A stretch of DNA of 64,000 nt from an uncultured archaeon (GCA_964486045.1 CAZALK010000001.1:256001-320000); one strand, 5' to 3'; positions 20,803 through 22,553 are shown, counted from the first letter of the stretch. Numbers and translations are program-made. The notes: generated by a model not told the origin, from the letters alone.

Positions 20803-21690
20803 ATGCCAAGTAGAAGAGCAGATAAAACGCTAGTCTTCAAAGTCGTTGGATATGGTCCATCCACGAGTGAAAATATTGAAGTATTTAAATGGATTCATGG
20901 GAAAAAAGGTAGTGATATAATACAAATACCTATGAGTCAAATTATTCTACAATCTTTTGACCGCTCCTTTGCAAGAGTCTCTAACGTAATCTTTCAATTT
21001 ATTAATGCTACAGGAAAGCAAAGACACCGGATCAAACCTGAAAATTTACTAAAAGGTTCTGATGTTATCATATTTATATGGGATAGTCTCATCGACCAAT
21101 GGGAAGAAAATGTCGAAAGTTTAAAGGAATTATTGAGTTTTTTAGGAGAAAAATTAATACCCACAGATACTTATGAGCCAGCAGATGTAGTCATGGTAGT
21201 TCTAGCAACAAAGCGCGACCTAGAGGATATTGTAGAAATTCCAAAGATCCGAAAAGTATTGGATATTGCTCATTTAAATCACACATTGATTTATGAGACA
21301 ATCGTCGATCAAGGAATTAATATAAAAAGAGCCGTTGTTTATGCATCTCGACTAGCAGTATTGAATCAATATAGAAAATTAAGTCATGAGATAGAGCAAG
21401 TTGAAAATGCAAAGCTAGAAAAGATTAATAAAATCAAAAAGTTGGTATTAGAATTAGGAATAAAATTTACACGATTAGAAATTAAGGAAATTGGTGAAAA
21501 AAGTAGTATTGATAATGAAGATACCATAATTGAAGTAGTTAAAGATATGATTAAAAATAAAGAAATTTATGCAGAATATTTTTCAAGTTCAAAGGCGATT
21601 GCTTTCGACCAACAAGCAAATATAGAAGAGATCGATAAGTTAATGGCGACCTATAAAGAATGGGAAGAGAAAGAAGTTGGAAAAAAATAG
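20803..21690 (+). CDS. Degenerate small GTPase (MglA/Arf-like) fused to the PCI-tail module
   Basis: FKVVGYGP with GKT lost, LLKGSDVIIFIWDS, G4 ATKRD; PCI tail. Confidence 0.7.
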   Translation: MPSRRADKTLVFKVVGYGPSTSENIEVFKWIHGKKGSDIIQIPMSQIILQSFDRSFARVSNVIFQFINATGKQRHRIKPENLLKGSDVIIFIWDSLIDQWEENVESLKELLSFLGEKLIPTDTYEPADVVMVVLATKRDLEDIVEIPKIRKVLDIAHLNHTLIYETIVDQGINIKRAVVYASRLAVLNQYRKLSHEIEQVENAKLEKINKIKKLVLELGIKFTRLEIKEIGEKSSIDNEDTIIEVVKDMIKNKEIYAEYFSSSKAIAFDQQANIEEIDKLMATYKEWEEKEVGKK

Positions 21691-22553
21691 ATACCTTTAA
21701 GATACAAAATTTAGGATTGAGAAATGTGGTTCAAAATAGATATACAAGATTAAAAGCAATAAAAGAGTTTGGTTATGATATTACTTGGGATGATCTTAGA
21801 AAATATCATATTGGAATTGTCGGTATTGGAGGTCTTGGTTGTGTTTCAGCTGAAATGGCAGTAAGATGTGGTATAGGGAAATTATCATTATTCGATTTCG
21901 ACACCGTAGAAATTGTTAATTTAAACCGACATATGTTTAAAGAAGAACATATAGGGCAACCAAAAGTTGAAGTTGCTTTGAAGATCTTGAAAGAAATAAA
22001 TCCTGATGTAGAAATAAGAAGTTTTAATAAAGATATTATGGATCCTGACTTCGAATCTAAATTTGAATCTGAAATTAAACAGATGGATATCATTTTAAAT
22101 GGATTAGATAATATTCCCGCAAGAGAATATTTAAATGCCAAGTGTGTCCTATTCAAAATTCCATTCATAGACGCAGGAGCATCTAGAAGCGGTTTATCTG
22201 GTTATATTCATCCCATCATTCCATATAAGACAGCTTGTGCTAAATGTATAAGTAGTATAGCTATAGATATCCCGGATGAAAGAGGAGAACCATGTGTAGC
22301 GTCTTTACCATCAACAATGGCAATCTTGGCAAGCGTTCAAATTCAAGAAATGTTAAAATATCTTCTAAAGTTTGGAGAAATGATTGATTATCTCATGTAT
22401 GACATGATAACGGGGAAGTTTTTGAGCTACAAAACTTTGAGAGACGATAATTGTCCTATTTGCCGTACAAAATCTCAAAATAATAAAAAATTAGTGAAGC
22501 CTAAAATTTCACGAGGAGAAATAGATGATTTAATTGATAAACTCAAAGGATAA
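21660..22553 (+). CDS. uba5: UBA5-like E1 activating enzyme (true start probably TTG 21717 or GTG 21726)
   Basis: RYTRL, GIGGLG, RCGIGKL, DFDTVEIVNLNR, Zn pairs ACAKC and NCPIC; catalytic segment CVASLPSTM...LKYLLKFG parallels UBA5 CAASLPTTM...LKFLLNFG (recalled). Confidence 0.8.
   Translation: MGRERSWKKIDTFKIQNLGLRNVVQNRYTRLKAIKEFGYDITWDDLRKYHIGIVGIGGLGCVSAEMAVRCGIGKLSLFDFDTVEIVNLNRHMFKEEHIGQPKVEVALKILKEINPDVEIRSFNKDIMDPDFESKFESEIKQMDIILNGLDNIPAREYLNAKCVLFKIPFIDAGASRSGLSGYIHPIIPYKTACAKCISSIAIDIPDERGEPCVASLPSTMAILASVQIQEMLKYLLKFGEMIDYLMYDMITGKFLSYKTLRDDNCPICRTKSQNNKKLVKPKISRGEIDDLIDKLKG

Follow-up and report, generated by a model that had tools for sequence, protein, structure and literature searches.

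A conserved C-terminal tail with a candidate acceptor lysine accompanies a UFM1-type conjugation operon in Asgard archaea

The DNA analysed here (the window, 64,000 nucleotides, G000:C1:256001-320000) belongs to a 5.2 Mb genome whose nearest named relatives are Promethearchaeota (Loki-group Asgard archaea), and it carries an island of genes for a UBA5-like E1, a UFC1-like E2, a UFM1-like modifier and a JAMM protease. Several proteins of this island, otherwise different in architecture, end in a common helical motif, referred to below as the adaptor tail, which very probably functions as a signal for the UFM1-type conjugation kit. The region under study comprises the 3' end of the open reading frame (ORF) at 20803-21690 plus the E1 gene, in window coordinates. 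Distribution was counted in a sample of 301 genomes of the phylum, and a UFC1-like E2 was found in 25 of them. The tail motif was not found in the literature searched, nor was any paper on an Asgard UFC1, and the system to which the motif belongs is of a known kind (UFM1-type). UFC1 has been reported as restricted to eukaryotes (PMC10183829), and Asgard Ufm1 has been reported in a paper whose main text does not mention UFC1 (PMC12962969).

The adaptor tail is a C-terminal motif of 22-27 residues in which hydrophobic residues at 0, +3, +4, +7 and +10 (I, L, M/L, Y/F and W) are followed by E and by a G-K pair standing 6 and 7 residues past the W. An earlier sequence-only reading of the window had given the motif as NI(E/D)EIDKLMxxYxxW, which is present but was cut too early at the W, since the conserved E (+1) and G-K (+6/+7) follow. 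The adaptor end quoted in that reading, NIEEIDKLMATYKEW, was recovered in ORF 20803-21690 (plus strand, 295 aa) and continues for 8 more residues (EEKEVGKK). The product of this ORF consists of a degenerate small-GTPase-like domain, a PCI/DDRGK1-type winged helix (21424..21609, residues 208-269) and the tail (21619..21687) with I277-L280-M281-Y284-W287, E288 and G293-K294-K295, K294 being the lysine seven residues past the tryptophan (W+7); its assignment draws on matches to Arf (E 2.7e-4) and PCI (E 0.029), together with model and fold searches. Five further island ORFs end (N/R)I(D/E/K)EIDKLMxxYxxW, and diverged versions are held by 18202, 9530 and 7840.

Across 33 modules of winged helix and tail (16-70% identity), the tail proved to be the most conserved part, as had been claimed, with a mean top-residue fraction of 0.59 vs 0.42 for the winged helix; the L is found in 100% and the W in 97% of the modules. 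In the structural model of the module, the winged helix is followed by 23 residues of helix, predicted with lower confidence, and the end is unstructured; in the model of the last 88 residues the helix extends to residue 85, the final residues having a predicted local distance difference test score (pLDDT) <50. The winged helix superimposed equally well on CSN3 (VIA Z 10.5, root-mean-square deviation (rmsd) 1.7, 66 residues aligned) and on the DDRGK1 winged helix (8c0d_E; VIA Z 9.9, rmsd 1.5, 61 aligned), and Pfam PCI matched 23 of the 33 members at E<=1 (best 1.5e-8).

Conservation of the tail extends over winged-helix subfamilies that are 16-25% identical and over several protein families; its carriers are unrelated LRR, TPR, WD40, beta-helix, GTPase-like and membrane proteins. 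In L152 and L169 it lies directly behind transmembrane (TM) helices with no winged helix, so that the motif is autonomous. In paralogues outside the island, the EIDxL half follows the same winged helix and the W half is missing, and in other paralogues RING, TIR or zinc-ribbon domains occupy this place, so that the slot is an output position, which fits either the substrate or the adaptor reading discussed below. The notion that a RING replaces the tail was only partly true, as L144 holds both the W tail and a RING. In L137, L138, L144 and L146 the winged helix is followed by a zinc ribbon and a RING-H2-like finger. Additionally, L072:2030-4723, L073:5981-7930 and L081:34-2517, all from genomes in which no E2 was found, combine the same winged helix with a C-terminal TIR, the tail being internal, decayed or lost.

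The distribution of the tail follows that of the operon. A profile of the tail only matched 20 of the 25 genomes with a UFC1-like E2 vs 6 of the 276 others (two of the six being short fragments), and sequence-checked counts gave 19/25 E2-positive vs approximately 10-12/276 E2-negative genomes; the profile was built in part from operon genomes, and kin among the counted genomes are non-independent. Five genomes (G026, G074, G086, G181 and G223) came to light through a profile not containing them, and so did G148 and G092, in their case through the tail profile and for the proteins described here. Within one Heimdall-group family, the tail is present in 7 of 7 E2-positive vs 1 of 21 E2-negative genomes, and two closed Heimdallarchaeum genomes yielded 12 and 21 tail matches. 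The number of carriers ranges from 1 to 21 per genome, with variable architectures. Furthermore, 55 of the 68 genomes in the window's family have one winged-helix subfamily, in most cases with no W half; the winged helix being this widespread, the link to the operon lies with the tail and not with the domain. The operon-type gene for an ESCRT-II-like protein was identified in 17 sample genomes, all 17 of which have tails, and in the tail-bearing genomes without this gene (G181, G148 and G092) F, M or Q replaces the W. In the rest of the 5.2 Mb genome, no intact tail was found outside the island, where nine ORFs and two broken fragments carry tails between 7.8 and 29.5 kb of the window. In G065 (L066:9916-10056, L174), what is left of the E2 is truncated and a tail fragment stands orphaned, a joint decay of kit and tail.

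The lysine at W+7 is present in 167 of 178 representative sequences (mostly of one subfamily), in 61 of 72 tails of E2-positive genomes and in 21 of 26 tails from four further genomes, in spite of the G-K end being shifted 3 residues outward in the latter; it thus spans 81-94% of the tails in these three sets, and is weaker (7/13) in tails of E2-negative genomes. The background frequency of lysine in the last 12 residues across this proteome is 13.6%. The full motif, with W and K+7, was found in 8 of 3568 proteins, and seven of these have it in their last 30 residues. That a portable tail which accompanies a conjugation kit holds a fixed lysine at its frayed end is suggestive of an acceptor site, here for the UFM1-like modifier.

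Taken together, we tentatively favour, at somewhat less than even confidence, the view that the tail is a portable client tag, a docking helix plus an acceptor lysine, for the archaeal UFM1-type kit. The tail helix would dock on a component of the kit, the conserved lysine at the flexible end would receive the UFM1-like modifier, and the carriers would be mostly substrates or cargo rather than E3 ligases, possibly passed to the ESCRT-II-like and SPFH proteins of the operon. Many carriers seem to be surface or membrane proteins whose cytoplasmic part consists of little beyond the module; tagged cargo fits such carriers, and the presence of ESCRT-II-like and SPFH genes in the operon, better than E3 adaptors do. 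Among single proteins, the E2 is the foremost candidate for the receptor of the helix, with an operon scaffold roughly equally likely. The SUMO consensus that Ubc9 reads is an E2-docking substrate motif. Together with K134 of RPL26, a C-terminal acceptor lysine (PMC10937380), it provides an analogy only, that of a short portable motif with a fixed acceptor lysine; the archaeal tail is helical, is approximately 25 residues long and has no sequence relation to these, and its acceptor role is putative. An extended version, which we consider doubtful, is that a genetically portable 'UFMylate-me' tag routes up to 20 sensor and surface proteins of Asgard archaea into a UFM1-type, ESCRT-II/SPFH-linked pathway of sorting or signalling with no separate E3, and that the E2-binding helix of eukaryotic UFL1 had an origin of its own: it would derive from helix 1 of a winged helix of this class, at the time DDRGK1 came to complement the split domain.

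Several observations weigh against the client-tag interpretation. The lysine, at +17 of the register, shares its helical face with the hydrophobic stripe and could serve as a contact; lysine-rich ends are common in these proteomes, and the sequence sets include relatives. Two island members (9530 and 18202) have no lysine at +7. With the helix in the E2 groove that accommodates UBA5's UFC1-binding sequence (UBS), the distance from the lysine to the catalytic Cys would probably be too great for modification in cis, judging from the published geometry (PMC8481289). Tails were also detected in approximately 6-12 genomes in which no E2 was found, including G147, which is 100% complete. Finally, co-occurrence cannot name the partner of the tail: the operon genes travel together, so the reader is not identifiable by distribution. 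An attempt to pick the partner from tail-positive, E2-negative genomes failed, as the JAMM, 15805 and 19594 genes are missing there too, except in G094, which has an E1 and a JAMM gene on a short contig.

The E1 is encoded at 21726..22553 (plus strand) with a probable GTG start, a product of 275 aa and the catalytic Cys codon at 22293-22295; the start previously placed at 21660 was abandoned in favour of the GTG at 21726, which is more probable and agrees with homologue lengths. Its best PDB match is UBA5 (E 2e-47), followed by MoeB (2e-31). The E1 end quoted in the sequence-only reading, GEIDDLIDKLKG, is present, the ORF ending at 22550, and its last part (22515..22550, plus strand) forms a C-terminal helix with the register 0, +3, +4 and +7, ending at +9, which is a probable UFC1-binding sequence. 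Such a tail helix, located after a flexible linker, was found in 17 of the 21 Asgard E1s of the sample; it is absent from G040, G094, G181, L187, L192 (Ca. Lokiarchaeum ossiferum) and L202 (Ca. Sigynarchaeum springense) and degenerate in G092.

In the human proteins, UBA5 L394, L397, M398, M401 and M404 bind UFC1 V29, L32, L39, I40, V43, F54 and L56, on a face opposite to the active site (PMC8481289); for this one pocket, UBA5 has a competitor in the UFL1 helix (PMC10702826). The UFC1-like E2 (26552..27094, plus strand; Pfam UFC1 E 1.6e-4) was identified by a profile search in which only UFC1 chains matched below E 1e-3; as a single-sequence query it missed UFC1. Its invariant Cys137 is the probable catalytic residue. 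By alignment with UFC1 (PMC8481289, PMC10702826), the helix 1/strand 1 groove is located at 26663..26740 (plus strand), where V38, K39, I42, I45 and M46 correspond to human L32, K33, Y36, L39 and I40, and I49, R53, F61, K62 and L63 to human V43, K47, F54, R55 and L56. The equivalent of human V29 is not conserved, and in the E2 of the Heimdall family the K47 and R55 equivalents are Q and F.

Where the E1 tail is kept, the I40-equivalent (E2 position 46) is M, L, V, A or T, and where it is lost or degenerate and the E2 is known (n=6), this residue is Q, N, S, S or G in 5 of 6. The exception is G040, in which the E1 tail is lost and the E2 groove and the W-tails are nevertheless kept. This covariation is in keeping with true use of the groove by the E1 tail, and we hold with good confidence that this tail is the equivalent of the UBS and binds the helix-1/strand-1 groove; part of the groove conservation may serve folding. 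Like the UBS (residues 392-404; PDB 7NVJ/7NVK/7NW1; PMC8481289), the E1 tail is a C-terminal amphipathic helix placed after a linker in a UBA5-type E1, it shares the first four hydrophobic positions, and the archaeal E2 keeps groove residues. The fifth hydrophobic position is missing in the archaeal E1, whose chain stops at +9, its linker is only ~15-25 residues long, a UFM1-interacting segment is not evident, and the tail has been lost in several lineages. A PDB search with the E1-tail profile did not retrieve UBA5 at E<=10 and is uninformative at so short a query length.

Whether the adaptor tail uses the same site is less clear. The sequence-only reading had proposed a shared E2-docking motif, of which the E1 half stands by position, register, groove and covariation, and adaptor use of the groove is no more than plausible. 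The likeness of the two helices is real: scored with an adaptor-core matrix of the ten positions common to both tails, the window E1 tail ranks 11th of 3568 C-termini (4th when the family itself is set aside). It is, however, close to what any acidic amphipathic helix of a generic kind would show, as the tails of fifteen other Asgard E1s lie in the top 0.7-43% (median ~10%), and a comparison of the two tail profiles with hhalign gave a probability of 4.8%. The human sequences cited in that reading were confirmed for the UFL1 N-helix and for the UBS residues of UBA5 (PMC8481289), as was the competition for one pocket (PMC10702826). The UFL1-type spacing (W5/I8/L11/F15) is reproduced by I274/I277/L280/Y284, but is also generic, occurring somewhere in 814 of 3568 proteins. 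Since this spacing is common and the EIDxL half also occurs in W-less paralogues, the part shared by E1 and adaptors is the generic part; W, E+1 and K+7, the most conserved tail residues, are not in the E1 tail. A PDB search with the adaptor-tail profile retrieved designed coiled coils and chance matches and not UFL1, and is likewise uninformative at this length.

The hydrophobic register of the adaptor tail agrees with both human ligands, UBA5 and UFL1. In Ca. Lokiarchaeum ossiferum, whose E1 has no tail, roughly a dozen proteins retain the adaptor tail. Adaptor tails persist and multiply in genomes that have lost the E1 tail and have S, G, Q or N at position 46, and they persist in G148, where this residue is K; in human UFC1, I40R abolishes E3 binding (PMC10937380). 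A remodelled groove in the lineages with tail-less E1s is possible, and the adaptor tails there often change too (D at +4, F/M/Q for W). A covariation between tail position +4 and E2 position 46 holds for some lineages (D with S/G) but fails in others, and is not claimed. The co-folding of the E2 with winged helix and tail scored 0.17 vs a mark of 0.32, without controls, and was not used for or against binding. Summed over the models considered, binding of the adaptor tail to the UBS groove of the E2 is a possibility that we place on the lower side of even.

The most direct rival to the client tag is an E3-like adaptor, in which the tail would occupy the UBS groove of a charged E2 once the E1 has been released, and the modifier would be passed to a third protein bound by the N-domain. 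The positions 0, +3, +4, +7 and +10 correspond to UBA5 L394/L397/M398/M401/M404, and -3, 0, +3 and +7 to UFL1 W5/I8/L11/F15 (PMC8481289, PMC10702826); the E2 groove is conserved, its basic rim (K39, R53, K62) would lie opposite the acidic tail, and E+1 could replace the terminal carboxylate of UBA5. The absence of a UFL1-type gene from the operons examined, the RING fingers that follow the same winged helix in other paralogues, and the retention of groove and W-tails in G040 after loss of the E1 tail also fit such an adaptor. Its case is weakened by the generic spacing (814/3568 proteins; hhalign 4.8%) and by the adaptor tails kept in five genomes whose E1 tail is lost or degenerate and whose I40-equivalent is S, S, G, Q or N, and in two more where it is K or S, as well as by the Q/F at the K47/R55 equivalents in the Heimdall family; moreover, it leaves K+7 unexplained, L144 has tail and RING in one protein, and the UFL1 helix maps to helix 1 of the winged helix. 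On balance, we regard the adaptor role as rather unlikely. The last of these points comes from ORF 18202, the winged helix of which has UFL1 residues 3-43 as its best, weak PDB match (E 0.076) and is the 1 of 33 module members matched by Pfam E3_UFM1_ligase (E 6e-4). In this alignment, the UFL1 E2-binding helix falls on winged-helix helix 1, with the invariant archaeal F-x-R on UFL1 F15-R17, which weakly suggests, from this one member of 33, that the UFL1 helix is a freed helix 1. The archaeal module resembles the UFL1-DDRGK1 E3 (PDB 8C0D, 8B9X; PMC10702826, PMC10937380) in combining a winged helix of the DDRGK1/UFL1/PCI class with an amphipathic helix of the same spacing, and some carriers are membrane-anchored like DDRGK1. 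It differs in the C-terminal position of its helix, behind a complete winged helix or a TM helix, whereas that of UFL1 is N-terminal and hinged to a partial winged helix, and it has neither a DDRGK motif nor a split winged helix. Compared with the UBS, the adaptor tail has additional length (W, E, G-K), and its carriers are non-E1 proteins.

Alternatively, the tail might dock non-covalently on an operon protein other than the E2 (the UFSP2-like domain of the JAMM protease, 19594 or 15805), with the lysine as an unmodified contact, which appears unlikely. The JAMM extension folds like the N-terminal region of UFSP2, and mammalian UFSP2 requires that region to associate with UFBP1/DDRGK1 (PMC10952357), making this domain a candidate tail receptor; contacts of PCI-like winged helices with archaeal Vps22/36-like proteins have been proposed (PMC10936438), and the co-occurrence of tails with the ESCRT-II-like gene described above points the same way. 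These patterns are nevertheless confounded by phylogeny and incomplete assemblies, tails occur without an operon-type ESCRT-II-like gene, and no particular pair is singled out by direct evidence. The tails could instead be PCI-type C-terminal helices that bundle with each other and with the MPN protein, in a complex like the proteasome lid, the CSN or eIF3. The winged helix best matches PCI subunits, helical repeats occur among the carriers, the helix is placed like PCI bundle helices and an MPN+ gene is located within the locus. Such a bundle is nonetheless very unlikely, considering the variable N-termini and copy number (1-21 per genome), the occurrence of tails on large membrane proteins and in the absence of a winged helix, the MPN extension, which seems to resemble UFSP2 rather than the Rpn11/CSN5 bundle helices, and the near-identity of the tails, a misfit for a defined hetero-oligomer. 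The reading of the tail as just the last helix of the domain, kept by recent duplication and unrelated to the kit, is largely refuted and scarcely credible: the island copies are 56-65% identical and most paralogues have a helix after this winged helix, but the tail is conserved across subfamilies and families, is also present where the domain is missing, and shares the distribution of the operon.

The remaining tail-bearing genes of the island encode, on the plus strand, an LRR protein (22607..24142), a multi-TM protein (24233..24982), a TM and TPR protein (27143..28627) and a short helical protein (28990..29478), and on the minus strand a TPR-like protein (13968..15344), all with winged helix and tail; ORF 28696-28947 may be the split N-terminus of the 28990-29478 protein. 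Further plus-strand members are the diverged 18202..19548 (winged helix 19267-19440, tail degenerate), an LRR protein with a second-subfamily winged helix and a tail (9530..11188) with lysine at W+5/+6, and not at +7, and a protein with an N-terminal module (7840..8961) and an internal tail at approximately 8029-8100. Broken remnants of tail genes were observed at 7712-7789 (+) and 13690-13821 (+) of the window and at G000:C8:65286-65534, pointing to a high turnover of the module.

The candidate tail partners of the operon are an ESCRT-II-like (EAP30/Vps22-36) winged-helix protein (15805..17199, plus strand), an operon-linked paralogue whose orthologues match EAP30 (E 8e-6 and 3e-8), and an operon-conserved 360-aa protein with a C-terminal zinc ribbon (19594..20676, plus strand), the profile of which had no convincing match in the PDB. 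ESM Atlas searches with the module and with the middle of 19594 gave no usable match. In Ca. Lokiarchaeum ossiferum (L192:5832-7223), a 19594-like protein is fused to an ESCRT-II-like winged-helix region. An SPFH/Band 7 protein (E 4.5e-12) is encoded at 17253..18116 (plus strand). Immediately past the island, two Rab-like small GTPase genes lie on the minus strand (31795-33219), and in G118 a gene for a Vps4-like AAA ATPase (L065:12103-13281) adjoins the UFM1-type operon. The UFL1/DDRGK-family match of the window's genome, a 790-aa tandem winged-helix protein (G000:C10:50836-53208; L147-L150), is located far from the island.

The JAMM/MPN+ protease (25045..26250, plus strand, start approximate) has a second domain like the N-terminal region of UFSP2. 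Its model (pLDDT 89) matched C. elegans UfSP (5xda; Foldseek E 1e-6, VIA Z 13.3, 268 residues, rmsd 4.6) and, in the second half, mouse UfSP2 (3oqc; Z 7.2), the extension being an alpha/beta domain that matches UfSP followed by three helices. The model resembles the non-catalytic MPN and N-terminal regions of UfSP/UFSP2-ODR4. The UFM1-like modifier (26289..26555, plus strand, 88 aa, ending VG) gave no Pfam match, and its family assignment rests on context and C-terminus; it adjoins the E2, or is fused to it, in nearly all intact loci, standing in frame at the E2 N-terminus (~270 aa) in L048, L049, L055, L063, L065, L182, L187 and L188. Compared with the eukaryotic UFMylation core (UBA5, UFC1, UFM1, UFSP2-ODR4), the archaeal E1 and E2, and probably the modifier, belong to the UFM1 branch, and the protease shares the non-catalytic architecture of UFSP2/ODR4, although it is an MPN+ enzyme with an intact JAMM motif and not a cysteine protease.

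Variants of the E2 were also observed. The Heimdall-group E2s of G160 and G003 (L013/L014; L057:10124-10711) carry an acidic linker and a terminal LEDLLKKLE helix with UBS-like character, which may possibly occupy the groove of the same E2 molecule. In the window, the ORF after the E2 starts with NLDDLLKEIK (27143-27202), of UBS-like spacing and in frame with the E2 stop. In G273, an 897-aa ORF (L060:9831-12524, minus strand) with no operon around it joins SIR2, TPR, a UFC1-like E2 and a seemingly degenerate UFM1-like end, which suggests a defence-type use of the module.

The choice of substrates in UFMylation, and its role before the endoplasmic reticulum and UFL1-DDRGK1, are standing questions, for which the island offers a complete small cascade together with a candidate substrate motif bearing a specific lysine. 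Ca. Lokiarchaeum ossiferum is available in culture and, with its tail-less E1 and retained adaptor tails, represents a natural control for the idea of a shared groove. If the E3-adaptor model were true, the hand-off between E1 and E3 on one UFC1 groove would predate eukaryotes.

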